A stretch of DNA of 64,000 nt, taken from positions 96,042 through 160,041 of the forward strand of contig NZ_NCJH01000003.1 in NCBI RefSeq assembly GCF_002278925.1, written 5' to 3'. Source of the stretch: Polaromonas sp. 39-63-25 (GTDB lineage: Bacteria; Pseudomonadota; Gammaproteobacteria; Burkholderiales; Burkholderiaceae_C). The position numbers and the translations under genes are program-made. This document shows positions 24,340 through 49,832 of this stretch, piece by piece (the first letter of the stretch is position 1; every line of letters begins with the position of its first letter). The notes under the pieces were generated by a model. That model did no database searches, was not told the DNA's origin, and worked only from the letters and a program-made list of their open reading frames with translations.

Positions 24340-24430
24340 CAGCAGGGGCCGCGGGTCCGGCTGTGCCGGCCCGCAGGCGCAGCGCCCCCTCGGGGGGCAG
24401 CGAGCTACACGCAGTGAGCGAACGTGGGGG
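24340..24430 (+). repeat. Family A palindromic dispersed repeat, copy 1
   Basis: ...GCAGCGCCCCCTCGGGGGGCAGCGAGCTACACGCAGTGAGCGAACGTGGGGG; near-identical to 28156, 40273 and 49761. Confidence 0.92.
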
Positions 24431-24432
24431 CT

Positions 24433-24957
24433 CTAATGCGCCACGCGGAAGTCCGCGTCGTCGCAGAGTTCGTCCAGGACCAGTGCATCGGGCTCTTCGC
24501 CAAAGCTCCAGTACACCATCAGCACAATGATCTTGAGGTCGTCCAGCGCAAGGGGGTCTCCCGGTGCGGCCATTGCCCGGTCGATCACGATTTCCCGCAT
24601 GTGGGATGGCAGCACACCCGAAGACTCCAGGAAACTGACGAAGCCCAGGGCCTGGGCGCCGAGGTGGTCCTGCTCTGCCACTGAATAAACACGCAGGCTG
24701 CCGGCCGACTGGGGCTGGAAGCCCGGCGGTGTGGTGGCCGTTGCGGGGACAGGGGGGGCGCTGGCCGGTGATGCGGCAGGCATACCAACCTGGGTGTTCT
24801 GCGCGGCGATGTTCAGGCCGTTGAGCCAGACCAGCGCCGCCTGGATCTCGTCGGCCTCAAAACCGACCGCCGTGAGTTTGCGGCTCAGCTGGTGCAACTC
24901 GGGGCAGGCGTCGCCTTGCCAGTAATTTTCGTAAACGTACACCAGTACTTCAAACAT
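24433..24957 (-). CDS. smg: Smg/DUF494 family protein
   Basis: 'MFEVLVYVYENYW...LTAVGFEADEI..AL.WL', 'REIVIDRAMA', 'LKIIVLMVYW'; downstream of dprA. Confidence 0.9.
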   Translation of the reverse strand: MFEVLVYVYENYWQGDACPELHQLSRKLTAVGFEADEIQAALVWLNGLNIAAQNTQVGMPAASPASAPPVPATATTPPGFQPQSAGSLRVYSVAEQDHLGAQALGFVSFLESSGVLPSHMREIVIDRAMAAPGDPLALDDLKIIVLMVYWSFGEEPDALVLDELCDDADFRVAH

Positions 24958-25036
24958 GCACTCAATATAACGCAGTTGGGAACGGTGTGACCGTTGTACG
25001 CCGCCGAAGGCCCTTGACCCGACGTAACCGTAGGCG

Positions 25037-26158
25037 TCAACCCCTCGCCATGCGCTGAAATAGCCCGCCCTGCAGCCTGGCAACCTCCCCGGCCATCTCC
25101 AGCGCCAGCAGACGGGCCTGTAATTCGGCGGTTGCCAACCCGGTGCGCGCCTGCAGGGCGTCGAGGCTGACGGGCTCGTACCCCATCGCCGCAAACAGCG
25201 GGTCGTCTGCAGGCTGTCCGTCCGCATCCGGTTCTGCGGTCAAGGCAGTCGAAAGCTGAGGCAGGTTCAACTCTTCCAGCACGTCCTGGGCGGACTCGAC
25301 CAGCTTGGCGCCCTGTTTGATGAGGGCGTGGCAGCCCCGCGACTGGGGGGAGTGGATGGAGCCGGGGATGGCAAACACCTCCTTGCCCTGTTCCGCGGCC
25401 AGGCGCGCGGTGATGAGCGAGCCCGACTTGAGCGCCGCTTCGACGACCAGCGTGCCTTGGGACAGACCGGAGATCAGGCGGTTGCGCTTCGGGAAGTTGG
25501 CGGTGAGGGGCGGTGTGCCCAGCGGGAATTCGCTGATGACCAGGCCATTTTCAGCAATGCGGTGAGCCAGCGCCAGGTGCTGCTTCGGATACACCCGGTC
25601 CAGCCCGGTGCCGACCACGGCCAGGGTGGTGCCGCCGCCGAGCAGGGCGCCGTCGTGAGCTGCGCCGTCCACGCCGAGCGCCAGCCCCGACACCACACAG
25701 AGACCGGCTTCACCGAACACCCAGGCAAATTGCCGGGCATTGCTTTCCCCCTGCGGCGTCGGGTTCCGGCTGCCCACGATAGCGAGGCAGGGAGCTGCGC
25801 TATTGATAGCTGCCGGCGCCCAGGGATCGAGGGATCCAAGCATATAAAGCATGGAAGGTGGGTCTTCGATGTCGAGCAGCGCGGGCGGGTAGCCGGCATC
25901 GCCCAGCGTCACCACACGCCGGTTGTCGGCGCCCTGCAACCAGTCCAGGGTGGTTTGCAGTTGGGCGGCCAGGGTGGCGGGCTCGGTCAGTAGCGCATCG
26001 GCCAGGCGGTCGGAGCCGAGCTGCCGCAAGGTGCTTGCGTCCTGTTCAAAGATGGCCTGGGCTGACCCGAACGCGGCCAGCAGCTGGCGGGCTCCCGCGT
26101 TGCCGATACCCGGGGTCAGCGACAGGCGCAACCAGGCGCCGAGTTCAGCAACGTCCAT
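25037..26158 (-). CDS. dprA: DNA-processing protein DprA
   Basis: 'AIVGSRNPT', 'VVSGLALGVDGAAH', 'FPKRNRLISGLS', 'GSLITARLAAEQGKEVFAIPGSI'. Confidence 0.96.
   Translation of the reverse strand: MDVAELGAWLRLSLTPGIGNAGARQLLAAFGSAQAIFEQDASTLRQLGSDRLADALLTEPATLAAQLQTTLDWLQGADNRRVVTLGDAGYPPALLDIEDPPSMLYMLGSLDPWAPAAINSAAPCLAIVGSRNPTPQGESNARQFAWVFGEAGLCVVSGLALGVDGAAHDGALLGGGTTLAVVGTGLDRVYPKQHLALAHRIAENGLVISEFPLGTPPLTANFPKRNRLISGLSQGTLVVEAALKSGSLITARLAAEQGKEVFAIPGSIHSPQSRGCHALIKQGAKLVESAQDVLEELNLPQLSTALTAEPDADGQPADDPLFAAMGYEPVSLDALQARTGLATAELQARLLALEMAGEVARLQGGLFQRMARG
25799..25840 (+). repeat. Degenerate family B repeat, antisense inside dprA
   Basis: GCTATTGATAGC-tgccg-GCGC-N11-GGG; same spacing and same antisense frame as the 14005 copy. 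Confidence 0.55.
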
Positions 26159-26229
26159 GGAAGGGTCGGATTCAGGCGGAGGCGGCAACGCAATTCATGC
26201 AGACGGTCTGCACAAGCTGGCGCTGATGC

Positions 26230-27447
26230 TTAATTGGGATTTTCGAAGTGGTCGCCCACTTTTACGCCTTCGCTTACCTCCAGGACCAGCGCATAGGAGA
26301 GCTTTTCAAAAGTGCGGAAGACAATCAACAAGCCGTTGCGTTCGTTGGGCAGCTTGATCTGTGTTCTGGCAGAGTCCGTGCGGTCGGTGATCCGTTCCCC
26401 GCTTCGCAAAATTGCCATGACATGGCCCCGCTCCAGACCGTCCCGGATGCCGCGGTTGATCACAACAACCTGGTTGCCCGCCGCATAACGCACGGCACTG
26501 CCATAAATCGAGACAATCTGGCCCTCAATGGGGAGCTGTGGCGCGCGCGGTACATAACTGAGCAGTTCGCGCGGCGGTTCCGGCACCAGCCGGTCACCGA
26601 CGCGCATTTCTTCCTTCGCGACGAGGATGTCGATGGTGGCCGGGATGATCTCATCGACGAGCTTGCCGTCCTTGCCCTTCACGCTGGCGGTGGACTCGCC
26701 GCGCACCAGCTCGGCCTTGCCAAGAAACTGTGCTTCGTAGCCGAGAATTTCGCCGGTGGTGGGGTCTTTCAGCGGTGTCGCATTGCGGAAGACCCGATAG
26801 TCCAGCGGCTCACCTTTGGCTGTGCTCAGCGGCTTGCCGGTGTCCTTGTTTGAGTAAACGCCGCGTGCGTAGGCGCGGTCGCCTCGGCTGAGCAAGACAC
26901 GGCCTTCCTGGGCGGCCACAATGCGCGGGGCGGTCAAAAACGCGGCTTCATCAACGATCAGGGCTTCCGACAGAAAGGGCTCAATGGCCTGTGGCGACAA
27001 CGTCGGGATGGCTGCGTCGGCCAGCGATTCGTAACGCGTGCGCGGCGATACCCGCACGGTGCCGGGCTGGCCGTCGCCGTCGCCCGCGCGCCGGGCCCGC
27101 AAAGTGGCGCGGCCGCCGGATTTGTCCAGATACAGCTGCTGGCCGGGATAAATCCGGTGCGGATTGCGGATGTCATCCAGATTCATGCCCCACAACTCGG
27201 GCCAGCGCCACGGGGTTTTCAGGAACATGCCCGAGATGGCCCACAAGGTGTCGCCGCGCTTGACGGTGTATTCGTCGGGGGCATTGGGGGCCAGATCGCT
27301 CAGCGGCACGCCGGTTTGGGCCACCTGGCTGGCCGTGGCTTTCTGGCCGGCGGTGATCGGGAAATTCTGTGCGTGCAGACCTGCGGTGGATGCCAGCAGA
27401 GCGGCCGCTATTGAAATCTGACTGAACCGACCAAAAATATGTTGCAT
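26230..27447 (-). CDS. LysM peptidoglycan-binding protein (TsaP-like)
   Basis: Signal peptide, LysM 'YTVKRGDTLWAISGMFLKTPWRWPELW...NPHRIYPGQ'; sits between def and dprA as in conserved synteny. Confidence 0.88.
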   Translation of the reverse strand: MQHIFGRFSQISIAAALLASTAGLHAQNFPITAGQKATASQVAQTGVPLSDLAPNAPDEYTVKRGDTLWAISGMFLKTPWRWPELWGMNLDDIRNPHRIYPGQQLYLDKSGGRATLRARRAGDGDGQPGTVRVSPRTRYESLADAAIPTLSPQAIEPFLSEALIVDEAAFLTAPRIVAAQEGRVLLSRGDRAYARGVYSNKDTGKPLSTAKGEPLDYRVFRNATPLKDPTTGEILGYEAQFLGKAELVRGESTASVKGKDGKLVDEIIPATIDILVAKEEMRVGDRLVPEPPRELLSYVPRAPQLPIEGQIVSIYGSAVRYAAGNQVVVINRGIRDGLERGHVMAILRSGERITDRTDSARTQIKLPNERNGLLIVFRTFEKLSYALVLEVSEGVKVGDHFENPN

Positions 27448-27635
27448 CTTGAGGCCCTTGGGGCTGGCGCGGCCTTGGGCATCAAGGCCGGACGCCGCGT
27501 TTGTATCTTGATAAATCACTAGCGATTTTGTACTTAAGCCCTTGATTAGGCAACGAATATGCCATTTCGCGACAGCGGGGATGCTGAAAAATGGCGAAAA
27601 TTAGCGAAAATAGCGACATCTGATTGCCTGCCACC

Positions 27636-28148
27636 ATGACCCAACTGACCATCCTTCGTTACCCTGACCCGCGTCTGCACACCGTTGCCAAGCCCGTGGC
27701 GGCGGTGGACGCGCGTATCCGCACTTTGGTGGGGGACATGCTGAAAACCATGTATGCCGCCGAGGGGATCGGCCTGGCCGCCAGCCAGGTCAATGTTCAC
27801 GAAAGAGTCGTTGTGATCGACGTCAGCGAGGGCCGCGACCAGCCGCTGGTACTGATCAACCCCGAAATCATCTGGTCCAGCCCGGAGACCCAGGTCAACG
27901 ACGAAGGCTGCCTGTCAGTGCCCGGCGTGTATGACGGGGTGGAGCGCGCCAGCGCCATCAAGGTGCGGGCGCTGGACCTGCAGGGCCAGCTGCAGACCCA
28001 CAGCGCCGAAGGCCTGCTGGCGGTGTGTGTCCAGCACGAGATGGACCACCTGATGGGCAAGGTGTTCGTCGAGTACCTGTCGCCGCTCAAGCGCAACCGC
28101 ATCAAGACCAAGATGATCAAGCAGAAAAAGGACGAGGAACGGGTCTGA
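27636..28148 (+). CDS. def: Peptide deformylase
   Basis: GIGLAA, EGCLS and QHEMDH motifs. Confidence 0.97.
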
Positions 28149-28155
28149 GTACAGT

Positions 28156-28244
28156 CCCCACGCTCGCTCACTGCGTGTAGCTCGCTGCCCCGAGGGGGCG
28201 CTGCGCCTGCGGCCCGGCAAAGCCGGTTCCGCGGCCCCGGCTGG
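28156..28244 (-). repeat. Family A repeat, copy 2 (inverted)
   Basis: CCCCACGCTCGCTCACTGCGTGTAGCTCGCTGCCCCGAGGGGGCGCTGCGCCTGCGGCCCGGCAAAGCCGG, between def and fmt. Confidence 0.92.
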
Positions 28245-28338
28245 TTTGAAGAGAAGTCACGGCGCATCTCCGCCAAGCAGGCCTCTGAAAAATTGGACGG
28301 TCCACTTTTCCAGGCCGGTACTCGGCGAAAATCCTCCG

Positions 28339-29319
28339 ATGCGCATTATTTTTGCCGGTACCCCCGAATTCGCCCGTGTGGCCCTCGCGCAGCTGCATGC
28401 TGCGGGTTTTGAAATTCCCTTGGTCCTGACCCAGCCGGACCGTCCCGCCGGGCGCGGCATGAAGCTGCAGGCGTCCAGCGTCAAGCAGTTCGCCCTCGAC
28501 CACCACATTCCCGTGGCGCAGCCGCGCAGCCTGCGGCTGGACGGCAAATATCCCGAAGACGCTGCCGCAGCACGCGCCGCCATCGAGTCGGCACAGGCCG
28601 ACGCCATGGTGGTGGCGGCCTACGGCCTGATCCTGCCGCAGTGGGTGCTCGACACGCCCCGGCTGGGCTGCTTCAATATCCATGCATCCTTGCTGCCGCG
28701 CTGGCGCGGTGCGGCGCCCATTCACCGCGCCATCGAGGCCGGCGACAGCGAAACCGGCATCACCATCATGCAAATGGACGTCGGGCTGGACACCGGAAAC
28801 ATGCTGCTGGTGGAGAAAATCGCGATTCTGCCGACCGACACCACCGGCAGCCTGCACGACCGGCTGGCGGCCCTGGGTGGCCGGCTGATGGTCGAGGCGC
28901 TGGAGCTGGCGGCCTGCGGCGGGCTGACCCCCGTGCGCCAGCCTGAGCAGGGAATCAGCTACGCCCACAAGATTGAAAAACACGAGGCCACCATCGACTG
29001 GACGCAAAGTGCGGCGGTGATCGCACGGCGTATCCGCGCCTTCAATCCCTTCCCGGCCGCAGCCAGTCCGGTGGCCGGTGAAATCCTCAAGATCTGGGAG
29101 GCGGCCGTGTGGCCGGGGCCCGTGCCGGCCGGCGCCCGGCCGGGCGAAGTGCTGGCCGTCAGCGAGCAGGGGGTGGATGTCGCCGCGGCAGACGGCGTAC
29201 TGCGCCTGACGCGCCTGCAGAAGGCGGGCGGCAAGGCGCTGGAAGCCGCGCAGTTCCTGCGTGGCTTCGCGCTGGCGCCTGGCATGGTGTTTGGTGCAGA
29301 CCCGGAGGCCGCACCATGA
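28339..29319 (+). CDS. fmt: Methionyl-tRNA formyltransferase
   Basis: '[12 protein letters not shown]', '[16 protein letters not shown]'. Confidence 0.97.
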
Positions 29320-30074
29320 ATACCCCCAAAGAGCCGCTGTGGCGCCACCCCGAGTTCCGCCAGGGCGTGCGCGACATGGCGCCCATTGCTGCCGGCACCG
29401 CCGCCTGGGGCCTGATGACCGGCGTGGCCATGGTCAAGTCGGGGCTCAGTGTGTTCGAGTGCGTGCTGATGACGGTAGTCGTGTTTGCCGGCAGTTCGCA
29501 GCTGGCGGCGGTGCCGCTGATTGTGGCCGGCGCGCCCATGTGGGTGATTCTGGCGACCGCTGCCTGCGTGAACCTGCGCTTTGTCGTGTTCAGCGCCCAC
29601 CTGCGCCCGTACATGATGCACCAGCCGCTGTGGCGCCGCATGGCCGGCGGGTACTTCACGACCGACCTCAGTTATGTGATGTTCACCGCCCGACATCCGA
29701 AGCCGGTGCCGCCCGATGATCTGCCGACCCTGCGCGCGCAGGAGGCCAGCCTGGCGGGCAACTGCGCCGTCACCTGGGTCGCCTGGGTGGTGCCCAGCCT
29801 GCTCGGCATCGCCATGGCCAACGCCGTGCCGCTGCACTGGGGCTTGGGGTTTGCGGGCATCCTGGCCTTGCTGGGCATCACGCTGTCACTGGCAAGCAGC
29901 CGGCTGCGCCTGATCTCGGCCGGTGTGGCCGGCGCCGCAGCGGTGGCGGCCTTTGCCCTGCCGCTCAAGCTCAACATCCTGGTCGGCATCGCAGCGGCCG
30001 TGGCGGTCTGCCTGATGCTCGAAAAGCCCGCCAGGCCAGACGCAGGCCGTCCCAAAGCCGGGGAGGCCGCATGA
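29316..30074 (+). CDS. AzlC-family branched-chain amino acid exporter permease
   Basis: '[14 protein letters not shown]', 'VNLRFVVFS'; hydrophobic; precedes AzlD. Confidence 0.88.
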
Positions 30075-30406
30075 TGCAGACCGATGGCTGGACTGTGGTG
30101 ACCATCCTGGGCCTGGCGGTGGTCACCGTGATCACGCGCTCTTTCTTTTTCCTGTCGAGCAAACCCTGGACATTGCCGGATTGGGCCCAGCGCGGGCTGC
30201 ACTATGCGCCGATTGCTGCGCTGGCGGCGGTGATCGTGCCCGAGATCGTGATGACGCAGGGATCTTTGATCAGCACCTGGCGGGACGCGCGCGTGTTTGC
30301 CGCGCTGGCGGGCGCTGCCTGGTTTTTCTGGCGCCGCACCGTGCTCGGCACCATCGTGGCCGGCATGGCGGTGTACCTGCCGCTGCATGTCTACCTCGGC
30401 TGGTAG
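30071..30406 (+). CDS. AzlD-family protein
   Basis: Small hydrophobic protein, 'LHYAPIAALAAVIVP'; ATGA-coupled to AzlC. Confidence 0.85.
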   Translation: MMQTDGWTVVTILGLAVVTVITRSFFFLSSKPWTLPDWAQRGLHYAPIAALAAVIVPEIVMTQGSLISTWRDARVFAALAGAAWFFWRRTVLGTIVAGMAVYLPLHVYLGW

Positions 30407-30475
30407 GCTTCACCGGACCCGCTCCTACAATCACTGGCACACCGATTTTTACCTTCTGTTTCCTTGCGAGCCCCC

Positions 30476-31669: not shown

Positions 31670-31684
31670 GCCGGAGCGACATTT

Positions 31685-31746
31685 GCTATTAAAAATATAG
31701 CTCTCTGCGCAATCAGGGCAAGGGGTGGAGGCCGTTTTTGCTTGAA
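31685..31746 (+). repeat. Family B repeat (intergenic copy)
   Basis: GCTATTAAAAATATAGC-tctct-GCGC-N11-GGGGTGGAGGCCGTTTTT. Confidence 0.85.
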
Positions 31747-31784
31747 TTTTTTCGGATCCACGGATAGCTGCCGGGAGTTTGCAG

Positions 31785-37286: not shown

Positions 37287-37313
37287 CCGGCGCCTTGGTT
37301 TAAAATAGCTTCA

Positions 37314-37401
37314 ACTCAAGGAGCGTTGCAGCGAAACCCGGTTTCGTCAGGCTTGGGTGACAGCAGGACCCCCACGGCCTGCCTTTGCAACGGCGCTCAC
37401 C
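37314..37401 (+). ncRNA. S-adenosylhomocysteine (SAH) riboswitch
   Basis: P1 ACTCAAG/CTTGGGT, conserved GAGGAGCG-like 'AAGGAGCGTTGC', hairpin, 'CAGGCTTGG', and 3' pseudoknot strand 'CAACGGCGCTC'; directly upstream of metH. Confidence 0.9.
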
Positions 37402-37442
37402 TCAGGGAGCTTGTTCAGAGCTTCCTCATCCAAGGTGAGTGA

Positions 37443-40250
<2,808 letters not shown>

Positions 40251-40272
40251 ACGGCCGCGAGGCGCTCCCTTC

Positions 40273-40364
40273 AAGCAGGGGCTGCGGAACCGGCTTTGCC
40301 GGGCCGCAGGCGCAGCGGCCCCCTCGGGGGGCAGGGAGCTACACGCAGTGAGCGACCGTGGGGG
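40273..40364 (+). repeat. Family A repeat, copy 3
   Basis: GGGGCTGCGGAACCGGCTTTGCCGGGCCGCAGGCGCAGCGGCCCCCTCGGGGGGCAGGGAGCTACACGCAGTGAGCGACCGTGGGGG, between convergent metH and comM. Confidence 0.92.
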
Positions 40365-40366
40365 CC

Positions 40367-41902
40367 TTAATTTGCTTTGAGCGCCCGCCGGTACTGCACC
40401 GCCTCGGCCACGTGGGTGAGCTGCACCGACTGCGCACCGGCCAGGTCGGCGATGGTGCGTGCCACTTTCAGGCAGCGGTGGATGCTGCGTCCCGACCAGC
40501 CTAGGCGCGCGGCCGCCGTGTTCAGAAATTTCGCTGCGGCATCGTCGAGCTGGCACTGCGCATCAATGGCCTTGCCCTGCAAGGCCTGGTTGCTGCTGCC
40601 CTGGCGCGCCGTGGCGCGTTCACGCGCCGCAACTACCCGTTGCCGGATGCTGGCCGTGCTTTCGCCTGGTGCGGCGCCCAGCAATTCCTCGGCGGCCAGT
40701 GCTCCCACTTCCACATGCAGGTCAATCCGGTCCAGCAGCGGGCCGCTGAGTTTGCCCTGGTAACGCGAGACCTGGTCCGGCGAGCAGCGGCAGGCACGCA
40801 GGCTGGAGCCGAGGTAGCCGCAGGGGCAGGGGTTCATGGCAGCGATCAGCTGGAAGCGGGCCGGAAACTCGGCGCGCCGGGCGGCGCGCGAGATCGTGAT
40901 GGTGCCCGACTCCAGCGGTTCGCGCAGGGCTTCCAGCGCGGCTCGCGGAAATTCCGGGAGTTCATCGAGGAATAAAACGCCATGGTGCGCCAGTGAAATT
41001 TCACCAGGCCGGGGCGGTGAGCCCCCGCCGACCAGGGCCACGGCGCTGGCGGTATGGTGCGGGGCGGCGGTGGGCCGGACTGCCCAGCTGTTCAGCGAAA
41101 AGCGGCCGCCGAGCGAGGCGACGGCTGCGCTTTCGAGCGCTTCGGCTGTGCTCATGGCCGGCAGCAGGCCGGCAAAACGCTGGGCCAGCATGGACTTGCC
41201 CGAACCCGGCGCGCCCACCATCAGCAGGCTGTGGCCGCCAGCGGCGGCAATCTCCAGTGCGCGCTTGGCCGCCGCCTGCCCCTTGACGTCGGACAGGTCC
41301 GGATAAGGGGTGGTGTCCTGCGGGGCGCTGGGCTGGAGCCGGACCCAGCCTTGCGTGTCCTCGGGAATCATGTCGCCCGGCAGAAATTGCCTGACCACGT
41401 CGAGCAGGTGGTGGGCCCGGTAGACCTCGGCATCCGGCACCAGCGCCGCTTCCTCGGCGCTGCCACCCGGCAACACCAGCCGGGGTCGGGGCTGACCGGT
41501 GTCCCGGCCTGGCAGGGCCAGGCTCATGGCCAGGGCGCCGCGTATGGGACGCAACTCCCCGCCCAGCGACAGCTCGCCGGCAAACTCGTAGCCTGCGAGC
41601 TTGGCGGTGTCGATCTGGCCACTGGCCGCCAGAATGCCCAGCGCAATAGGCAGATCGAATCGGCCAGAGTCCTTGGGCAGGTCGGCCGGTGCCAGGTTCA
41701 CGGTGATGCGTTTGTTGCCGGGAAACTCCAGGCCGGTGTTCTGGATGGCAGACCGCACCCGCTCACGGGCTTCCTTGACCTCTGTCTCCGCAAGGCCCAC
41801 GAGCGTGAAACTTGGCAGGCCGTTGGCCAGGTGCACTTCGACGCAGACCGGGTGCGCCTGCATACCCAGCAAGGCACGGCTCTGCACTAAAGATAAGCTC
41901 AT
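40367..41902 (-). CDS. comM: YifB/ComM Mg-chelatase-like AAA+ ATPase
   Basis: 'VNLAPADLPKDSGRFDLPIA', Walker A 'GAPGSGKS', 'PGEISLAHHGVLFLDELPEF', 'AMNPCPCG'. Confidence 0.93.
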   Translation of the reverse strand: MSLSLVQSRALLGMQAHPVCVEVHLANGLPSFTLVGLAETEVKEARERVRSAIQNTGLEFPGNKRITVNLAPADLPKDSGRFDLPIALGILAASGQIDTAKLAGYEFAGELSLGGELRPIRGALAMSLALPGRDTGQPRPRLVLPGGSAEEAALVPDAEVYRAHHLLDVVRQFLPGDMIPEDTQGWVRLQPSAPQDTTPYPDLSDVKGQAAAKRALEIAAAGGHSLLMVGAPGSGKSMLAQRFAGLLPAMSTAEALESAAVASLGGRFSLNSWAVRPTAAPHHTASAVALVGGGSPPRPGEISLAHHGVLFLDELPEFPRAALEALREPLESGTITISRAARRAEFPARFQLIAAMNPCPCGYLGSSLRACRCSPDQVSRYQGKLSGPLLDRIDLHVEVGALAAEELLGAAPGESTASIRQRVVAARERATARQGSSNQALQGKAIDAQCQLDDAAAKFLNTAAARLGWSGRSIHRCLKVARTIADLAGAQSVQLTHVAEAVQYRRALKAN

Positions 41903-42040: not shown

Positions 42041-42057
42041 TTGGCACGCTCCATGCT
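42041..42057 (+). promoter_or_regulatory. Sigma54 (-24/-12) promoter of the TorF-glnK-amtB operon
   Basis: TTGGCACGCTCCATGCT: GG-N10-GC spacing exact. Confidence 0.85.
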
Positions 42058-42106
42058 AAGTGTTCATCGCGCCAAATTCCCTTTTCAACTATTTATGGAG
42101 TCCTCG

Positions 42107-42874: not shown

Positions 42875-42896
42875 AATAACACGGCTTAGAAGCTGA

Positions 42897-43250
<354 letters not shown>

Positions 43251-43278
43251 GCCTCAACCCTCAAAAAGAGAAATAGAC

Positions 43279-44796: not shown

Positions 44797-44880
44797 CCGG
44801 CACAAGCCGTGGCCGTCTCCGGGTGGCCACGGCGGCTTGAATGAATTTGGGATAAATAGCGAGAGTCTCCTTTGGATGTT

Positions 44881-44919
44881 GAGCCCGCAAGAACTCCGGT
44901 TCTGGCGGGCTTTTTTTTT
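44881..44919 (+). terminator. Strong intrinsic terminator
   Basis: GAGCCCGC-AAGAAC-TCCG-GTTCT-GGCGGGCTT followed by a long T-run. Confidence 0.85.
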
Positions 44920-44967
44920 GCCTGGGCGGTTTGTCCACCGTGCACAATGTCGGCAGGAGACTTGCCC

Positions 44968-45834
44968 ATGACCGAGCCCATCACCTTGTCCAGCGCCAGC
45001 CTGCGTTGTGACATCAAGCCCGACCTGGGCGGTTGCATCACCGGCCTCTGGCTCGGCGACCTGCCTGTGCTGCGTTCGACGCCCGCCGGCGAGCTGATGT
45101 CGGTGCGCCTGGCCGGCAGTTATCCGCTGGTGCCGTTTTCCAACCGTGTCGGCCATGCCACGCTGAAGTGGCAGGGCACCAGCCATCCGCTGGTGCAGAA
45201 CAACGGGCCGGAGCCGCATGCCATCCATGGCCTGGGCTGGCAGCGGCCCTGGCAGGTGCTCGACCAGGACGAGCAGCTGCTGATGCTCGCTTTCGAACAC
45301 AGCGCCGACGCCGCCTGGCCGTTTGCCTTTGACGCCTCGCAGACTTTTCGCCTCAGTGGCAACACCCTCGAACTCACGCTGAGCATGACCAACCAGTCGG
45401 CCACACCGGCGCCGGCCGGTCTGGGCTGGCACCCCTACTTTGTCAAGCGCAACCGCAGCCGTATTGCGTTTGAAGCGACCGGGCGCAGGGAGATGAACGA
45501 GGAAAAACTGCCGACGCACCGCCTGCCGGCGCACGGACTCGACGTGGACTGCGCCGCGCTCGATGTGGACCACTGCTTTGACGGCTGGAACGGCGTGGTG
45601 CACCTGCGTGATGAAAAAATGCACACACGCATAGCGTCCAACCTCGGCCGCCTGGTGGTGTTCACCAACCCGAAGCGCGACTTTGTGGCGATCGAGCCGG
45701 TCAGCCATGTCAACAATGCCGTCAACCTGCTGCAGGCCGGGGCGGGCCAGGTCGATGAGCTGGGCATCCAGGTGCTGGCACCGGGCGAATCCATGAGTGC
45801 CCAGATGAGCATCCAAGTGGAGTCCGCCGCATGA
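44968..45834 (+). CDS. Aldose 1-epimerase family protein
   Basis: 'YPLVPFSNRV', 'HAIHG', 'GLGWHPYF', 'FVAIEP'. Confidence 0.88.
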   Translation: MTEPITLSSASLRCDIKPDLGGCITGLWLGDLPVLRSTPAGELMSVRLAGSYPLVPFSNRVGHATLKWQGTSHPLVQNNGPEPHAIHGLGWQRPWQVLDQDEQLLMLAFEHSADAAWPFAFDASQTFRLSGNTLELTLSMTNQSATPAPAGLGWHPYFVKRNRSRIAFEATGRREMNEEKLPTHRLPAHGLDVDCAALDVDHCFDGWNGVVHLRDEKMHTRIASNLGRLVVFTNPKRDFVAIEPVSHVNNAVNLLQAGAGQVDELGIQVLAPGESMSAQMSIQVESAA

Positions 45835-46763
45835 GCTGGACGACCACGGTTGCGCAGCCCAGCGAACTGGGCGAATCGCCGTTCTGGCACCCCGACGAGC
45901 AGCTGCTTTACTGGGTCGATATTGCGGGTAAAAAAATTCACCGCAGCAATGTGTTCATGGGCACGGTGGAAAGCTGGGCCATGGCGGCGCCGCATGAGCT
46001 GGAGCCCGGCTGCATCGCACCGGCGCGCAGCGGCGGGCTTGTGGTTGCGCTGCGCGACGGCATCTATCGGGCGCGGACCTGGGGCGGTGCGCTGGAGAAG
46101 CTGGCTGATGCCGCGCACGACCCGCGAACCACCCGCTTCAACGACGGCAAATGTGATCCGCTGGGTCGCTTCTGGGCCGGCACGATCTACGAGCCGCGCG
46201 CTGCGCGCGAAGCGGCGCTGTATTGCCTGGACGGCCGGGCGGGCCACACACCGGCGCTGGTGCGCATGGCCGGCGACGCGACCGTGGGCAACGGCCTGGC
46301 CTGGTCGGCCGACAGCCGGACCCTGTACTGGGCCGACACGACCGGCCATGTCATCCGCGCCTGGGACTGGGACGCCGCCGGCAACACCCTGGCCCGGCAG
46401 CGCGTGTTCCGGCAGTTCCCGCCCAAGCCGCCCGGCTGGCAGGCCGGCATGCCGGGTTATGGCGGCCGACCCGACGGCGCAGCAGTGGACAGCCAGGGCA
46501 ATTACTGGGTGGCCATGTACGAGGGCGGGCGCGTGCTCAAGCTGTCGCCGGGCGGCGAACTGCTGGCCGACATCCCCACCCCCGTGGTGTGCCCGACCAT
46601 GGTGTGTTTTGGCGGCGACGACCTGCAGACGCTGTACCTGACCACGGCGCGTCACGGGCGACCCGCCGCCGAACTCGAAGTACTGCCGCAGTCCGGTTGC
46701 GTGTTTTCCATGCGTGTCGATGTGCCCGGTCTGCCCGTCCATTTTTTCGCGGACGCGGGTTGA
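45831..46763 (+). CDS. SMP-30/gluconolactonase family protein
   Basis: 'LGESPFW', 'RFNDGKCDPLGRFWAG', 'GNGLAWS', 'PDGAAVDSQGNYWVA'. Confidence 0.9.
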   Translation: MSWTTTVAQPSELGESPFWHPDEQLLYWVDIAGKKIHRSNVFMGTVESWAMAAPHELEPGCIAPARSGGLVVALRDGIYRARTWGGALEKLADAAHDPRTTRFNDGKCDPLGRFWAGTIYEPRAAREAALYCLDGRAGHTPALVRMAGDATVGNGLAWSADSRTLYWADTTGHVIRAWDWDAAGNTLARQRVFRQFPPKPPGWQAGMPGYGGRPDGAAVDSQGNYWVAMYEGGRVLKLSPGGELLADIPTPVVCPTMVCFGGDDLQTLYLTTARHGRPAAELEVLPQSGCVFSMRVDVPGLPVHFFADAG

Positions 46764-46839
46764 AGCCCCCAAAAAAGCGAACAGCCGCCGTTCAAAAATA
46801 TCAACCCCGGCCGACCGGCGTCCCCTTACCATCAGCACC

Positions 46840-47937
46840 ATGGACTCAGCGCTTCAATTGATCATCGACCAGGTGCAGGCGGCAGCCGCCAGCGGCACGC
46901 CACTGCGCATCCGCGGCGGCGGCAGCAAGGACTTCTACGGCCAGACGCTGCAGGGCGAGGTGCTGGATGTCACGCCGCTGGCGGGCATCACCAGTTACGA
47001 GCCCACCGAACTGGTGGTCACCGCGCGGGCCGGCACGCCGCTGGCCGAGCTCGAGGCGGTGCTGGCGGAACGCGGCCAGTGCCTGCCTTTCGAGCCGCCC
47101 CACTTCGGGCCGGGCGCCACGGTGGGGGGCATGGTTGCAGCCGGCCTGAGCGGCCCGGCGCGCGCCAGTGTGGGTGCCGTGCGCGACTACGTGCTGGGCG
47201 TCACCCTGCTCAACGGCAAGGGCGAGTTGCTGACCTTCGGCGGTCAGGTCATGAAAAACGTGGCGGGTTACGACGTCTCCCGGCTGATGGCGGGTGCCAT
47301 GGGCACACTGGGGCTGCTCACGGAAATCAGCCTCAAGGTGTTGCCGGTGGCGCCAGCCGAAGCCACGCTGAAGTTCGGAATGAGCCAGTCAGAGGCCCTG
47401 GCAAAGTTGAACAGCTGGGGCGGGCAGCCGCTGCCGCTCAACGCCAGCTGCTGGGTCGACGACGCCGGTGCCCCCACCCTGTACCTGCGTTTGCGCGGCG
47501 CCGTCGCAGCGGTCGAGGCCGCCTGCAAAACACTGGGCGGCGAGCGCCAGGACAATGCCGCGACGGCACCCGACTGGACCTTGTGCCGCGACCAGCAGTT
47601 GCCGTGGTTTCTGGAGCGCGGCGAGCAGGACTTGTGGCGGCTGTCGGTGCCGCAGACCGCACCGGTGCTGGACCTGCCCGAGCCGCCGCTGGTCGAATGG
47701 CACGGGGCGCAGCGCTGGGTGCGGGCTGCCGCCGGTGAGGCGCAGCGCCTGCGCGATGCTGCTGCGGCTGTTGGCGGAAGCGCTACGCTTTTCATAGCTG
47801 ATGGCGCTCATGTGGAAAGGGCTGAGGGCCGATTTGACCCCTTGAAGCCACCTCTGGACCGGATTCACCGCCAGCTCAAGAAAGAGTTCGATCCCTCCGG
47901 GATTTTCAATCGCGGCCGCCTCTACCCGGACTTCTGA
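46840..47937 (+). CDS. glcE: Glycolate oxidase FAD-binding subunit
   Basis: 'GGGSKDFYG', 'YEPTELVVTARAGT', 'GGQVMKNVAGYDVSRL'. Confidence 0.93.
   Translation: MDSALQLIIDQVQAAAASGTPLRIRGGGSKDFYGQTLQGEVLDVTPLAGITSYEPTELVVTARAGTPLAELEAVLAERGQCLPFEPPHFGPGATVGGMVAAGLSGPARASVGAVRDYVLGVTLLNGKGELLTFGGQVMKNVAGYDVSRLMAGAMGTLGLLTEISLKVLPVAPAEATLKFGMSQSEALAKLNSWGGQPLPLNASCWVDDAGAPTLYLRLRGAVAAVEAACKTLGGERQDNAATAPDWTLCRDQQLPWFLERGEQDLWRLSVPQTAPVLDLPEPPLVEWHGAQRWVRAAAGEAQRLRDAAAAVGGSATLFIADGAHVERAEGRFDPLKPPLDRIHRQLKKEFDPSGIFNRGRLYPDF
47782..47846 (+). repeat. Family B repeat read in frame inside glcE
   Basis: GCTACGCTTTTCATAGC-tgatg-GCGC-N11-GGGCTGAGGGCCGATTTG; encodes ATLFIADGAHVERAEGRFD. Confidence 0.85.
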
Positions 47938-49163
47938 TGCAAACCCACCTCGCCCCCGAATTCAAGAACACCGCCGACGGCCAGGCGGCCGAGGCGATTT
48001 TGCGCAAATGTGTGCACTGCGGTTTCTGCACTGCGACCTGCCCGACCTACCAGCTGCTCGGTGACGAACTCGACGGCCCGCGCGGGCGCATCTACCTGAT
48101 CAAGCAGGTGCTCGAAGGCCAGGCGCCGACGCGCAAGACCCAGCTGCATCTGGACCGCTGCCTGACCTGCCGCAATTGCGAGACCACCTGCCCCAGCGGC
48201 GTGCAGTACGGCCACCTGATCGACATCGGCCGCAAGCTGGTCGATGAACGGGTGCCGCGGCCCACTTCCGAGAGCGTGGTGCGCTGGGCGCTGAAGGAAG
48301 GCTTGCCGTCACCGCTGTTTGCACCGGCCATGAAACTCGGTCAGGCCGTGCGTGGCCTGTTGCCGGCGGCGCTGAAGAACAAGGTGCCCGCGCGCCAGCC
48401 GGCGGGCCAGTGGCCGCAGCGTGAACACGCCCGCAAGATGCTGATGCTGGCCGGTTGCGTGCAGCCCGCCATGATGCCCAACATCAACACCGCGACGGCG
48501 CGTGTGCTCGACGCGGCGGGCATCCAGACCGTGGTGGCAGCCAAGGCCGGCTGCTGTGGCGCGGTGAAGTTTCACCTGAACGACCAGGACGGCGGCAAGG
48601 CCGAGATGCGCCGCAACATCGACGCCTGGTGGCCGCATGTGGAGGCTGGTGTCGAGGCCATCGTCATGAACGCCTCGGGCTGCGGCGTCACCGTCAAGGA
48701 GTACGGTTACCACTTGCAGGACGATGCGGCGTATGCGGCCAAGGCGGCGCGTATCAGCGAACTGACGCGCGACCTGAGCGAGCTGCTGCCCGAACTGGTG
48801 GCGTCGCTGCGCGGCCGGGTGGCCGCCAGCGCTGCGCCTATCGCGTTTCATCCGCCTTGCACGCTGCAGCACGGCCAGCAGCTGCGCGGCGGTGTTGAGC
48901 AACACCTGGGCGCCCTGGGTTTCGACGTGAAGGTCGCCAGCTGCGAAGCGCATCTGTGCTGCGGTTCGGCCGGCACCTACTCCGTGCTGAACCCGGAGAT
49001 CGCCTTCCAGCTGCGCGACCGCAAGCTGGCGAATCTGGGCGAGATGGCGCCCGAGGTGATTGTGTCGGCCAACATCGGCTGCATCACGCACCTGCAAAGC
49101 GGCACGGCCACGCCGGTGCGGCACTGGATCGAAGTGCTCGACGAGGCGCTATCAAATAAATAG
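47937..49163 (+). CDS. glcF: Glycolate oxidase iron-sulfur subunit
   Basis: 'CVHCGFCTATCP', 'CLTCRNCETTCP', two CCG domains. Confidence 0.95.
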   Translation: MQTHLAPEFKNTADGQAAEAILRKCVHCGFCTATCPTYQLLGDELDGPRGRIYLIKQVLEGQAPTRKTQLHLDRCLTCRNCETTCPSGVQYGHLIDIGRKLVDERVPRPTSESVVRWALKEGLPSPLFAPAMKLGQAVRGLLPAALKNKVPARQPAGQWPQREHARKMLMLAGCVQPAMMPNINTATARVLDAAGIQTVVAAKAGCCGAVKFHLNDQDGGKAEMRRNIDAWWPHVEAGVEAIVMNASGCGVTVKEYGYHLQDDAAYAAKAARISELTRDLSELLPELVASLRGRVAASAAPIAFHPPCTLQHGQQLRGGVEQHLGALGFDVKVASCEAHLCCGSAGTYSVLNPEIAFQLRDRKLANLGEMAPEVIVSANIGCITHLQSGTATPVRHWIEVLDEALSNK

Positions 49164-49210
49164 CTGCTTGCGCCCGTCCATCAAGGGCTGAAGGCAACTT
49201 TCTTCTGAAA
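49148..49210 (+). repeat. Family B repeat supplying the glcF C-terminus and stop codon
   Basis: GCTATCAAATAAATAGC-tgctt-GCGC-N11-GGGCTGAAGGC; TAG at 49161-63 lies in the repeat head. Confidence 0.88.
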
Positions 49211-49696
49211 TCAGGCGGCCAGCGCAGCTTCCACGTCTTTCGCCAGGTCGGCCGGTTTGTCGGTCGGTGCATAACGCCGGATCACCTGACCGTCCTTGCC
49301 GACCAGGAACTTGGTGAAGTTCCACTTGATGGCCTTGCTGCCCAGCAGGCCGGGCGCTTCGGACGACAGCCACTTGTACAGCGGGTGCGCGGCCGGGCCG
49401 TTGACGTCGATCTTGCCCATCATTGGAAAACTCACGCCATAGTTGACCTGGCAGAACTCGGCAATCTCGCCGTCGGCGCCCGGGTCCTGGGAGCCGAACT
49501 GGTTGCAGGGGAAACCCAGCACCACCAGGCCCTTGCCGGTGTAGGCCTTGTGCAGCTCTTCAAGGCCGCCGAACTGCGGCGTGAAGCCGCATTGGCTGGC
49601 CGTGTTCACGATCAGCATGACCTTGCCCTTGAATTGCGAAAGCGCAATGTCCTGGCCGTTGATCTGCCGGGCTTCGAAGTCGTAAATGCTGCTCAT
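49211..49696 (-). CDS. Glutathione peroxidase family (Cys-type)
   Basis: 'NTASQCGFTPQ', 'GFPCNQF', 'KWNFTKFL'. Confidence 0.94.
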   Translation of the reverse strand: MSSIYDFEARQINGQDIALSQFKGKVMLIVNTASQCGFTPQFGGLEELHKAYTGKGLVVLGFPCNQFGSQDPGADGEIAEFCQVNYGVSFPMMGKIDVNGPAAHPLYKWLSSEAPGLLGSKAIKWNFTKFLVGKDGQVIRRYAPTDKPADLAKDVEAALAA

Positions 49697-49760
49697 GGCG
49701 CGCTCCTGGTTGGACCTGCCACTGTACTGCAGCGAATGAACGGAGGGGGGATGTTTTTCC

Positions 49761-49832
49761 GCCGGGCCGCCCCGAGGAAAAATGCGCCCCCTCGGGGGGC
49801 AGAGAGCTACGCGCAGCGAGCGAACGTGGGGG
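49761..49832 (+). repeat. Family A repeat, copy 4 (variant left module)
   Basis: Shares GCCCCCTCGGGGGGCAGAGAGCTACGCGCAGCGAGCGAACGTGGGGG; left part is GGGCCGCCCCGAGGAAAAAT instead. Confidence 0.85.

Follow-up and report, generated by a model that had tools for sequence, protein, structure and literature searches.

The bacterial repeats closest in way of life to the family described here are the REP sequences and BIMEs of Escherichia coli: short, GC-rich hairpin repeats present in hundreds of copies per genome, found mostly behind genes, where the spacer is co-directional or convergent, mosaic and modular, and variable between strains at the same sites. In one count, 260 of 496 E. coli REPs lie at most 15 nt from a stop codon, against 446 of 4072 in another (PMC12306157). 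According to the summary of Liang et al. (2015) given in PMC12306157, REPs at this distance stall ribosomes and lower translation. The termini of REPs sometimes provide a TAG stop, and REPs also occur inside repair genes (PMC3733652). In the REPINs of Pseudomonas and enterobacteria, two REPs form an inverted doublet, which flanks a single-copy RAYT gene or is served by one; these doublets are non-autonomous and vertically inherited within a lineage, and their copies are kept uniform.

Several other repeats are relevant for comparison. ERIC/IRU, the Correia elements of Neisseria and the SMAG elements of Stenotrophomonas are co-transcribed, fold as hairpins and influence the stability or processing of the mRNA in a way that depends on their orientation; they carry terminal inverted repeats and often target duplications (TA for Correia). 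None of them is known to be docked to stop codons at the rate found here. The Rickettsia palindromic elements (RPE) are in-frame insertions in conserved genes, adding a peptide segment. Elements of the IS200/IS605 type lack terminal inverted repeats and target duplications, have subterminal hairpins and are constrained on one strand. The integron attC site is an imperfect hairpin directly behind the stop codon of the preceding ORF, in one orientation, of which only one strand folds.

The ~100-base hairpin-forming repeat family of Polaromonas and related bacteria reported here is previously undescribed. It is a high-copy, non-autonomous, structured repeat of Comamonadaceae, mainly labelled Polaromonas, Rhodoferax and Curvibacter, with a REP/BIME-like way of life and a different build. 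It represents an unusually sharp case of the preference of REP-type repeats for gene ends.

Four copies in the window

The window, i.e., the whole 64,000-nt stretch of DNA analysed, contains four copies, as the initial annotation had claimed. The 29-nt core GAGCTACACGCAGTGAGCGAACGTGGGGG matches with at most two mismatches at 24402-24430(+), 28155-28183(-), 40336-40364(+) and 49804-49832(+), and gave no match in 100 shuffles. A covariance model trained on 68 family members also returned precisely four copies, the next-best match scoring 12.6 bits. In all of them, the GCCCCCACG end lies 0-7 nt past the stop codon of a gene (smg, def, comM and an EamA gene, respectively).

Copy 1 (24329-24431, minus strand) is of type A, head plus tail A, as established by the covariance model (112.7 bits), the core match and reading of the sequence. 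It lies where a DUF1631 gene and smg (DUF494; Pfam DUF494/Smg, PF04361; 24433-24957, minus strand) converge, in the spacer between the two. Its head end GCCCCCACG occupies 24431-24423 on the minus strand, and tail A is matched at 24345-24378. The junction, TAG-A-GCCCCCACG (24432-24435, minus strand), is formed by the smg stop (24435-24433) and the leader base A at 24432, in the leader sequence ...CATTAGA|GC.

Copy 2, also of type A (28154-28254, plus strand; 103.4 bits, with hairpin columns and covariation), lies in sense between the co-directional genes def (peptide deformylase, Pfam Pep_deformylase; 27624-28148, plus strand) and fmt (28339-29319). The junction reads TGA-gtacaGT-CCCCACG (28146-28153, plus strand), with the def stop at 28146-28148 and the leader gtaca. 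Downstream, on the plus strand, follow the C-run GTCCCC (28154-28159), hairpin 1, GCTCAC-TGC-GTG(T)AGC (28166-28181), hairpin 2, GCCCC-GAG-GGGGC (28187-28199), hairpin 3, GCGGCCCGGC-AAA-GCCGGTTCCGC (28209-28232), and the 3' motif GGCCCCGGCTGGTTTGAAGAG (28233-28253). Def ends here in ...KKDEERV*, three residues shorter than the ...KKDEERELVR* of element-free relatives.

The third copy (type A; 40262-40365, minus strand; 115.8 bits, core and tail match) is found in the convergent spacer between metH, which ends at 40250, and the gene of a ComM/YifB-type Mg-chelatase-like ATPase (comM; Pfam Mg_chelatase/ComM; 40367-41887, minus strand). Its head adjoins comM: at the junction TAA-G-GCCCCCACG (40366-40369, minus strand), the stop occupies 40369-40367 and the leader base G 40366. 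Copy 4 is of type B (49748-49833, minus strand; 54.8 bits, core match and sequence) and lies in sense between the co-directional genes of an EamA-family transporter (Pfam EamA; 49833-50756, minus strand) and a glutathione peroxidase (49211-49696, minus strand). It shares one base with the EamA stop (49835-49833, minus strand): the final A of the stop codon is at the same time the first base of the copy, so that TAA overlaps (A)CCCCCACG. The head is that of copies 1-3, with a G/C variant of hairpin 1. The tail GCCTGCGGNCCGGCAAAGCCGGNNCCGCGGCCCC, common to copies 1-3, is replaced by GCATTTTTCC / CTCGGGGCGGCCCGGCG / GGAAAAAC with the loop CTCGGGGCGGCCCGGCG, in agreement with the modular build, common head and swapped tail, proposed from the outset. 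The same proposal of a ~90-bp palindromic repeat holds for the repeat, which measures ~100 nt, but not for the single palindrome: three hairpins stand in a row.

Build of the unit and comparison with known elements

The unit consists of a leader, a 48-nt head and an exchangeable tail hairpin. The leader (6-10 nt) is A/T-rich and C-poor and usually contains a stop triplet; it is degenerate (consensus aAATAKR), and no subfamily-specific target was seen in it. Undocked copies have leaders that are likewise A/T-rich and C-poor; hence, the leader belongs to the element or to the insertion process, and a purely DNA-level explanation also fits this likeness. The head comprises a C-run and two hairpins: hairpin 1, whose loop is TGC, and hairpin 2 (GCCCCC-CGA-GGGGGC, C6/G6). 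Tail hairpins are of type A or B, and both differ from hairpin 1; type C is a ~85-nt expansion between head and tail.

The nested hairpins noticed in the initial annotation are borne out, the predicted pairs being supported by compensatory changes. Pairing holds in 96.5% of the cells, and compensatory changes affect five pairs, in 41 cells. None of 500 shuffles reached the covariation score of 0.081 (0.037 in shuffles). For single copies, the free-energy z-scores are modest (-1.4 to -2.0), and hairpin 1 is missing from the minimum-energy fold of the sense strand. On the sense strand, the variable arms of tail B contain 178 Watson-Crick, 35 G.T and 0 A.C pairs, and the outer stem of tail A has 18 G.T versus 2 A.C. 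The wobble pairs of tail B occur exclusively on the strand matching the mRNA of the docked gene. This pattern, in which the G.T cases represent perhaps 6-8 independent events, rather favours a role of the mRNA-sense strand; a single-stranded DNA intermediate would be compatible with a tolerance of G.T as well.

The family is extragenic, mainly downstream of genes and of high copy number (4 copies per 64 kb, extrapolating to hundreds per genome; at least 233 loci), and it shares with REPs and BIMEs the spacer types, the mosaic and modular build, and the strain variation at the same sites. The BIME/REPIN-like anatomy suggested earlier did not hold up. The unit of ~100 nt has three different hairpins, whereas a REP is one palindrome of 20-40 nt. 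An invariant unpaired GTAG or CGTC tag is absent: GTAG is part of the hairpin 1 stem (columns 24-27 of A1) and becomes GTCG, GTGG or GTAA, the opposite side of the stem changing to compensate. Arrays are head-to-tail throughout (five copies at locus L109, four at L066, three at L110, and others), unlike the alternating BIMEs and the inverted doublets of REPINs, and where one locus has copies of opposite orientation, these belong to different genes, with 0.9-3.6 kb between them. Docking is also tighter (-1 to +8 nt), commoner (~71% of classifiable sites) and strictly polar. With REPINs, the family shares its non-autonomous nature, its vertical inheritance in a lineage and the uniformity of its copies. 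A tblastn search with E. coli RayT in 1.1 Mb plus 0.73 Mb around 264 copies gave nothing better than E = 0.75; this sample of 1.8 Mb covers ~1% or less of each genome, and a distant RAYT could be missed. In the same small part of each genome, no copy had a RAYT, IS200-like or IS110 enzyme as its neighbour.

Other classes were considered and rejected. For a MITE, the ends GCCCCCACGG... and ...GCTTGAAAAGAG are not mutual inverted repeats, and filled and empty alleles differ without duplication, a few host bases being replaced. This also separates the family from ERIC/IRU, Correia and SMAG, which it resembles in its hairpins and, as proposed below, in transcription with neighbour genes. With IS200/IS605 elements it has in common the absence of inverted repeats and duplications, the subterminal hairpins, the single constrained strand and a polar relation to a left flank similar to the right end. 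A miniature derivative of such an element was nevertheless rejected: the leader has no fixed 4-5-nt target, the hairpins at the two ends are unlike, the orientation follows genes and not the replication strand (mixed within a few kb), and a Y1 transposase was not found in the part sampled. The attC site shares the docking behind a stop in one orientation, the folding of a single strand and a structure conserved above sequence (here, the arms of tail B), but the RYYYAAC/GTTRRRY cores are absent from the consensus, an integron context is lacking, and in place of cassettes, the element is flanked by syntenic housekeeping genes (def-fmt, rimM-trmD, eno). The in-frame copies in radA, gcvT and fmt recall RPE, whereas the family is mainly extragenic and stop-docked. 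In Rfam 15, no match was obtained at the copies with gathering thresholds; for copy 2, with E up to 10, only chance-level matches appeared (at most 14.5 bits, against cut-offs of at least 39).

Docking to stop codons across the family

The exact head motif was found at no fewer than 113 genome loci and 120 metagenome loci, nearly all of which carry the label Polaromonas, Rhodoferax, Curvibacter or Comamonadaceae; diverged relatives occur in MAGs labelled Hydrogenophaga and Hylemonella. Independent sites number 170 (97 genome, 73 metagenome), of which 150 are classifiable (87 and 63). A site was counted as docked when the head begins -1 to +8 nt past a real stop codon in sense orientation, with genes called by an in-house codon-usage caller, not a validated gene finder. 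By this definition, 106 sites are docked (63 genome, 43 metagenome), i.e., ~62% of the independent and ~71% of the classifiable ones. The first description of the repeat as always docked is thus correct for the window (4/4) and too strong for the family. For genomes, 63/87 classifiable sites compare with a null of 3.2% under random intergenic placement (p ~3e-74), and the metagenomes give 43/63.

The strict polarity seen in the window extends to the whole family. In co-directional spacers of genomes, 34 of 39 sense copies and 0 of 11 antisense copies are docked; convergent spacers have 16 of 17 copies docked, and divergent spacers hold three copies. The metagenome contexts replicate this distribution (27 sense co-directional, 5 antisense, 18 convergent and 1 divergent), with 15 of the 18 convergent copies head-docked. 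Docking at the tail side was looked for at the family sites, convergent spacers included, and none was found. Random orientation and distance elsewhere, named beforehand as the contrary outcome, is clearly not the case. Both orientations occur within a few kb in eight loci, and the GC skew over the window is mostly positive, without sustained reversal: the orientation of the element tracks genes, not replication.

The family is best read, at a probability of roughly 0.45, as a mobile RNA module of the 3' UTR that is coupled to the termination of translation. The element would be co-transcribed as the first part of the 3' UTR of the upstream gene, and its hairpins would act on the mRNA-sense strand. 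As the 5' C-run lies -1 to +8 nt past the stop, a ribosome terminating there would cover it with its footprint. Possible pairing partners for the G-run of hairpin 2 are the 5' C-run, the neighbouring C-run or, in type A, a third C-run, and given these alternatives, termination would switch the fold. By analogy with the E. coli REPs at most 15 nt from a stop, the module may set the stability or processing of the mRNA 3' end and the termination efficiency of the upstream gene. Copies would persist mainly where the head is docked, family members probably taking each other's place at the same gene ends. The element is present in metatranscriptome contigs with many different flanks; the raw-read runs examined are unstranded or DNA-like.

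A more specific version of a function in RNA would be termination of transcription through Rho loading. After the last hairpin follows UGCUUGAAAAGAG or UGCUGGUGAAGAG, without a U-run on either strand, and because this U-tract is absent, the element is not an intrinsic (Rho-independent) terminator. The C-rich head could instead be a putative rut site, freed for Rho once ribosomes terminate, with the tail hairpins pausing the polymerase. C is abundant and G scarce in the first 40 nt of the consensus sense strand (21 C, 9 G), with the observed polarity the C-rich strand has to be the one in the RNA, and in two metatranscriptome assemblies, a depth of ~100 over def and ~10 over fmt hints at a drop. 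On the other hand, base-pairing is predicted for much of the C-rich head, one metatranscriptome has no drop across the element, and copies lie inside operons before the needed genes trmD (rimM-trmD) and fmt (def-fmt), because of which the element cannot be a strong terminator. Rho loading is regarded as very improbable.

Turnover as DNA and rewriting of gene ends

The element moves or turns over as DNA, as shown by its presence or absence among close relatives, its head-to-tail arrays and its in-frame copies within genes. The comparison with empty sites, suggested in the initial annotation, revealed filled and empty alleles of the def-fmt spacer in relatives with flanks ~93-95% identical and changed Def C-termini; further pairs were found at eno, rimM, FKBP and fmt. 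From species to species, different subtypes are found at the same gene ends and at one and the same fmt site.

Alternatively, the docking may come from targeted insertion, which the initial annotation put forward beside selection as a 3'-UTR element. A putative HUH/Y1 enzyme (e.g., RAYT) or site-specific recombinase would insert the element just past the translated region, a possible target being the non-template strand, single-stranded and accessible at the place where ribosomes come off the nascent RNA. The insertion step itself would then account for both docking and polarity, and the element would in essence be selfish DNA. The polarity following transcription, the variable presence and subtype at given sites, the constraint on one strand only (as in single-strand transposons) and the lack of terminal inverted repeats and target duplications all agree with such a step. 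So do a recurrent breakpoint after GCCCCCACG(G/C) in seven copies and the 3' end TGAAGAG, which is similar to the leader (...TAGAG, ...TGAG), just as the left-flank and right-end cleavage motifs of IS200/IS605 are alike. However, leader-like non-coding sites lie behind a real stop in only ~5% of cases, and simple sequence targeting is insufficient to account for the docking. The leader without fixed target, the dissimilar head and tail hairpins and the outcome of the RayT search also speak against targeted insertion, the intragenic copies show that insertion is not confined to gene ends, and we know of no DNA enzyme that senses the reading frame. This explanation is considered rather unlikely.

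Gene ends are often rewritten by the element: the upstream gene receives a new stop and new last codon(s). At locus L016, Leu-Lys is added out of the leader; Def loses at least three residues in filled alleles, and in L114, what seems to be the old def TGA is still there behind the element. From such cases it can be argued that docking reflects tolerance only: the stop triplets at the 5' end of the element would let sense insertions in the last codons survive, while others are lost, without function or targeting. The decayed remnants L118 and L120 fit this view, and so do the intragenic copies, a small minority of the family, of which all three kinds (radA, gcvT, fmt) are antisense, the orientation that keeps the frame open. 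Against it, the native protein length is retained in most filled alleles, which random insertion and trimming would not predict. Convergent spacers, which have no promoters, are still head-docked at 16/17 and 15/18 (metagenomes) with no tail docking. With random placement at ~3%, intergenic insertions would presumably need a survival ~70 times worse than that of gene-end ones. Tolerance alone is judged quite unlikely, and the RNA module remains the preferred reading.

Leader subfamilies that include the stop are common to independent sites: 48 pairs agree at 7/8 or more, whereas host controls give 4-7 such pairs and column shuffles 11.7, a result that also favours tolerance. Lys/AAA and TAG endings are commoner in the genes docked by the element than in other genes.

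Four copies and the anatomy of the element

In the window, a 29-nt core was matched, with at most two mismatches, at 24402-24430 (+), 28155-28183 (-), 40336-40364 (+) and 49804-49832 (+), and in none of 100 shuffles. Repeat detection paired the copies, in direct and in inverted orientation, over 49-58 nt at 85-94% identity. A covariance model built from 68 family members returned exactly four copies, at 24329-24431 (-), 28154-28254 (+), 40262-40365 (-) and 49748-49833 (-), with 115.8 to 54.8 bits; the next match reached 12.6 bits. Read in the direction of the neighboring gene, all four start with (G)CCCCCACG directly after the stop codon. The junctions are TAG-A-GC at smg, TGA-gtaca-GT at def and TAA-G-GC at comM, and at the EamA gene, the stop TAA overlaps the first base of the element. 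These gene names are borne out by Pfam. Core matches, covariance model and junctions thus agree with the initial annotation, which had placed four copies behind stop codons in one orientation. The tail swap it had described is also real: the copies at smg, def and comM have one common tail and the copy at EamA another. The term palindromic repeat does not fit, as the element comprises three hairpins in a row instead of one palindrome.

Written on the top strand, which runs with the docked gene, the element begins with an A/T-rich, C-poor leader of 6-10 nt (consensus aAATAKR, then GC). The head consists of GCCCCCACG-N-TC, hairpin 1 (GCTCAC-TGC-GTG[T]AGC), TCYCT and hairpin 2 (GCCCCC-CGA-GGGGGC). 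Tail A is formed by CGCTGCGCCT, a bulged hairpin of 9-10 bp (GCGGNCYGGC-AAA-GCCRGNNCCGC) and GGCCCC-KGCTKG..TGAAGAG, and tail B by a conserved CTTGGGGCGGCCCGGCG flanked by two complementary arms of very variable sequence. In type C, an expansion of ~85 nt is inserted between head and tail. The element has no terminal inverted repeats, and its arrays are head-to-tail, with at most five units. A long variant of ~190 nt occurs in the sampled loci L015, L031, L038, L039, L067, L068 and L103 (also L072 and L111); its extra structured segment of ~85 nt (CGAGGCCTTGCAGGCCGC...GGAGCCGCAGGCTCCAG) sits between GTAGCTCC and CCCCTCGGGGGCC and looks like a nested or expanded module. A full-length autonomous "module C" was rejected, as this is merely the head-tail expansion and contains no ORF. 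In read sets of a soil study (runs X21 and X22; window 28190-28245), tail A was several-fold more abundant than the head and was attached to other head variants (e.g., CCCACTTCGTGTGGTTCGCTG); hence, the head searched for is not the only one with which this tail module circulates.

The hairpins are conserved as structures. In an alignment of 68 copies, standard pairs occupy 96.5% of the pair cells, and two-sided changes are found in five pairs (41 cells). The covariation score was 0.081 vs. 0.037 in shuffles, none of 500 shuffles reaching it. Pairs in hairpin 1 switch between TA, GC and CG and between AT and GC, and in more diverged copies, the entire stem is replaced (e.g., CCCCCAC..GTGGGT or TTTTCAC..GTGTAA). 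Since GTAG lies inside this stem and is variable, it does not correspond to the tag of classical REPs, which is invariant.

On the top strand, the variable arms of tail B comprise 178 Watson-Crick, 35 G.T and 0 A.C positions, and the outer stem of tail A has 18 G.T against 2 A.C. A double-stranded or cruciform constraint would treat both mismatches alike; hence, the hairpins are kept on the top strand only, which has the same sense as the mRNA of the docked gene. Because the G.T cases represent perhaps 6-8 independent events, this evidence for a one-strand constraint is good, though short of overwhelming, and the bias fits either RNA or single-stranded DNA without separating the two.

An exact scan for the head motif recovered at least 113 genome stretches and at least 120 metagenome stretches. 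Among the matches listed, the labeled genomes are nearly all Polaromonas, Rhodoferax, Curvibacter or unnamed Comamonadaceae, many of the sampled loci being from MAGs, some with implausible taxon labels. The loci matched include the cultivable, sequenced isolates Polaromonas sp. JS666 and Rhodoferax lacus, and diverged relatives of the family are present in MAGs labeled Hydrogenophaga and Hylemonella. The window sequence was detected in groundwater, mine-drainage and aquatic metagenomes, and its nearest relatives are Polaromonas-type MAGs with a 97-98% identical Def. A phage or plasmid origin was rejected, with no match to the element among 2.9 million viral contigs.

Docking behind stop codons

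Both samples demanded an intact 28-nt head motif, which favors conserved copies and is blind to position. Genes were called with our own caller, which scores log-odds of codon usage, was trained on long ORFs from the sampled loci and recovers the expected genes of the window; orthologous sites were merged by upstream-flank similarity into independent sites. Among the matches listed, the genome sample contains 97 independent sites, 63 of which are docked, the GC of the head lying -1 to +8 nt behind the stop codon of a gene that reads into the head, with distances roughly even across this range. Beyond +8, the next of all copies among the matches listed lie at 18-20 nt (three copies) and then at 72 nt or more. 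The other genome sites face a gene start (16), lie farther behind a gene (8) or are unclassifiable (10). For a point placed and oriented at random in this intergenic space, docking is expected in 3.2% of cases, giving a binomial p of ~3e-74 for 63/87.

Among the same genome matches, 34 of 39 sense copies in co-directional spacers and 16 of 17 copies in convergent spacers are docked; none of the 11 antisense copies in co-directional spacers is, nor any of the three in divergent spacers. The metagenome matches listed add 73 independent sites, 43 of them docked over the same distance range, and their contexts follow the same pattern (27, 5, 18 and 1 for co-directional sense, co-directional antisense, convergent and divergent). 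As docking and context pattern are replicated there, the polarity belongs to the family as a whole. The strict polarity noted for the four window copies therefore extends to the matches listed: with 63/97 genome and 43/73 metagenome sites docked, random orientation or distance relative to stops was not seen.

Distances from the tail side to anything checked show no preferred value. A Shine-Dalgarno role of the 3' GAAGAG was rejected, as its spacing to downstream starts shows no preference, and so was docking to tRNA 3' ends, a copy being found behind none of the seven tRNA genes in the sample. The orientation of the element tracks genes, not replication; both orientations occur within a few kb at eight loci, the window among them, and GC skew across the window is mostly positive, without sustained reversal. 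On the start side, a copy lies 3 nt 5' of a start codon in two loci (L004, 2293; L043, 2226), with an empty ortholog in L094. The gene started there looks like Hsp33 (hslO), judging by its predicted N-terminus. Because the head faces this start (GGGGGC-TTC-ATG), the G-run of the element would have to be the ribosome-binding site. Several further start-side copies lie at most ~14 nt from a predicted start.

Simple targeting of a DNA motif, followed by loss of coding insertions, is insufficient to account for the docking: AAAT(AA/AG/GA) occurs 275 times in coding and 183 times in intergenic sequence and only 33 times as a real stop, and when free leader-like sites in non-coding sequence are picked with a leader weight matrix, only ~5% of them follow a real stop, whatever the threshold, so that ~5% docking is predicted. 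Guide-like recognition was rejected, since no covariation of the leader target with the head subfamily was seen. Tolerance alone is strained as a cause, because in promoter-free convergent spacers, 16/17 copies (15/18 in metagenomes) are head-docked and none is tail-docked, among the matches listed. Taken together, the docking calls for a factor linked to real stops of translation: either the docked sense configuration confers a benefit, or the insertion step somehow senses where translation ends.

Mobility and rewritten gene ends

The family is mobile and turns over, and its junctions are rewritten. The def-fmt spacer is filled in the window and in locus L114 and holds a decayed copy in L117 and L118; L115, L116, L119 and numerous others have an empty spacer. 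Empty alleles of Def end in ...KKDEERELVR, and filled or remnant alleles in ...EERV, ...EELA, ...DEA or ...KQLK; in L114, the former TGA of def seems, from its sequence, to survive behind the element. In many relatives (L121, L123, L130, L147), the stop of def and the start of fmt are coupled in an overlapping TGATG. The two genes are separated in the window by the element and a spacer of ~85 nt, so insertion must have uncoupled them.

For eno, rimM and an FKBP-type isomerase gene (named from its encoded C-terminus), protein length is kept, and the last codons and stop are rewritten. The empty allele of eno ends in ctg cgc TAA and the filled ones in tta agg TAA-tg, ttg aag TGA, ctg aaa TAA or ctg aag TAA; the corresponding ends are gac tac TGA and gat tat TAA-a for rimM, and agt cgt TAA and aag aag TAG for the isomerase, although part of these differences may be ordinary divergence, as the pairs come mostly from species 75-95% identical. 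Family-wide, the GC content of the last codon is 0.48 in docked genes vs. 0.63 in other genes, 19 docked genes end in a Lys codon (~7 expected; 13 are AAA), and TAG is the stop of 33% vs. 15%.

Unrelated sites have leader subfamilies in common, stop included (TGAATGTG, GAAATAGA, TAGTCATRSS). Leaders agree at 7/8 or better in 48 pairs; host controls give 4-7 such pairs and column shuffles 11.7. The leaders of undocked copies are likewise C-poor, and seven copies consist of a stop, GCCCCCACGG, a leader-like spacer and a full element. The common subfamilies, the undocked leaders and these double-start copies indicate that the leader, often with the stop triplet, belongs to the repeat unit. In the double-start copies (L018, L026, L028, L031, L035, L057, L080), a 10-nt head fragment, GCCCCCACG(G/C), is docked to the stop, followed by a C-poor spacer of 8-12 nt and the full element. 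The fragments break at a constant place, 2-3 nt before hairpin 1, which may mark where cleavage or recombination occurs. A small coupled ORF (TGATG or TAATG overlaps, ATGTGGC leader subfamily) was rejected, as indels between copies break every frame; so was a target-site duplication including the stop triplet, as the 3' TGA motif does not match the 5' stop type.

Orthologous gene ends of different species encode the same C-terminus with differing spacers, stop types and element subtypes, and the differing subtypes imply turnover or repeated occupation of the same sites. Two "empty" alleles, L208 at the eno end (ctg aaa TAA gg...) and L120 at the def end (ttg aaa TAG CCCC gcc...), have leader-like ends, which may be footprints or remnants of lost copies. 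Comparison of near-identical metagenome contigs gave no clean empty sites.

In-frame copies are also present within radA, gcvT and fmt; in each case, the bottom strand is the one read by the host gene, an orientation that leaves the frame open. In radA of a Curvibacter-labeled MAG (L003, 2026-2119; empty site in the window at ~62760-62771), an 84-nt copy adds a peptide between the Walker-A region and LYVTGEE. The gcvT gene, encoding the glycine-cleavage T protein (L099, 3668-4969 (-)), contains a copy at ~4470-4558 (...PPQDASTPSGGREPHAVGDRGG...), read on the bottom strand. In the fmt region of several Polaromonas-type genomes, including the closest relative of the window, an antisense copy of a head variant (CTTTTCACTGCGTGTAA) is located at L114 2249-2333, L126 2164-2247 and L140 2098-2192, and also in L128, L150, L171, L158 (twice) and L193. 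In the three aligned cases (L114, L126, L140), nine host bases (TPR of the conserved PRLGC motif) are replaced, yielding ...GA(H/R)K. This copy is absent from the window (empty site ~28650) and from L115.

No RAYT or IS200-like transposase was found by tblastn with E. coli RayT in the sequence around the sampled copies, which is weak evidence, as each genome is sparsely sampled. The sole locus with inverted copies ~0.9 kb apart (L099) contains gcvT with its in-frame copy, not a transposase. It is rather unlikely, though conceivable, that the element is a mobile "3'-end cassette" (own stop plus 3'-UTR module), delivered specifically to stops, where a mechanism reading the translation end would let it replace the stop and the final codon(s) of housekeeping genes. 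Delivery could make use of the strand that becomes exposed once the nascent RNA is free of ribosomes, or of an RNA-templated step. If true, this would be an insertion-site choice new for bacterial mobile elements; we know of none that selects its site by the end of translation.

Proposed RNA function and known repeat systems

We infer that the element acts as RNA at the start of the 3'-UTR. While a stop codon occupies the ribosomal A site, about a dozen bases after it are inside the ribosome; at a docked stop, the stretch covered would be the 5' C-run and what follows it as far as the start of hairpin 1. When the full sense RNA is folded to minimum energy, the hairpin 2 G-run pairs with the 5' C-run; when the first 11 nt are removed, it folds onto the adjacent C-run, and in type A, a third C-run is also available to it. 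Translation termination would toggle this fold, and the output could be protection or processing of the upstream cistron's 3' end and/or modulated termination. Pairing between the stop codon and the G-runs would be prevented by the C-poor leader. A role as strong terminator is excluded, because the element sits 5' of trmD and fmt and has no U-tract. Its first 40 nt contain 21 C and 9 G, a composition that makes a Rho-loading role possible. The repeat is present in metatranscriptome assemblies, which break at it, and the raw-read "RNA" runs examined are unstranded or DNA-like; a search for isolate RNA-seq of strain JS666 gave no result. In two metatranscriptome assemblies, the depth of fmt is ~10-fold below that of def, which is a hint.

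Few non-coding features of bacterial genomes are as common as REP-type repeats, and E. coli is, to our knowledge, the sole worked example of stop-proximal ones. Effects of E. coli REPs within 15 nt of a stop are reported in the part of PMC12306157 that refers to Liang et al. 2015, a parallel to the proposed 3'-end or termination effect of the docked element. REP termini can provide TAG stops, and REPs also occur within repair genes (PMC3733652); inverted repeats are generally enriched directly after stops (PMC6060812). In lifestyle, the element thus resembles REP/BIME, with its stop-proximal placement, own stops and copies in genes, but its anatomy fits none of GTAG/CGTC REP, REPIN, MITE, IS200/IS605-type element, intrinsic terminator or attC. 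The family repeats the REP-type stop-codon habit in an unrelated lineage, in a much sharper, extreme and testable form: one orientation, a hard 8-nt limit, ~70% of classifiable sites, stop-bearing leaders and rewritten last codons. A ribosome-coupled RNA function, stop-directed insertion and mere tolerance are candidate explanations that become open to direct testing with this family. For annotation, a mobile repeat often defines gene ends in these genomes, and peptide segments are added to RadA, GcvT and Fmt.

No paper describing this repeat family was found in a literature search, and a known RNA family was rejected, Rfam giving no match to the element at gathering or permissive thresholds. 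Elsewhere in the window, an S-adenosylhomocysteine (SAH) riboswitch was detected at 37312-37405 (+), with 52.4 bits (cut-off 37), directly 5' of a metH-type methionine synthase gene (37443-40250).
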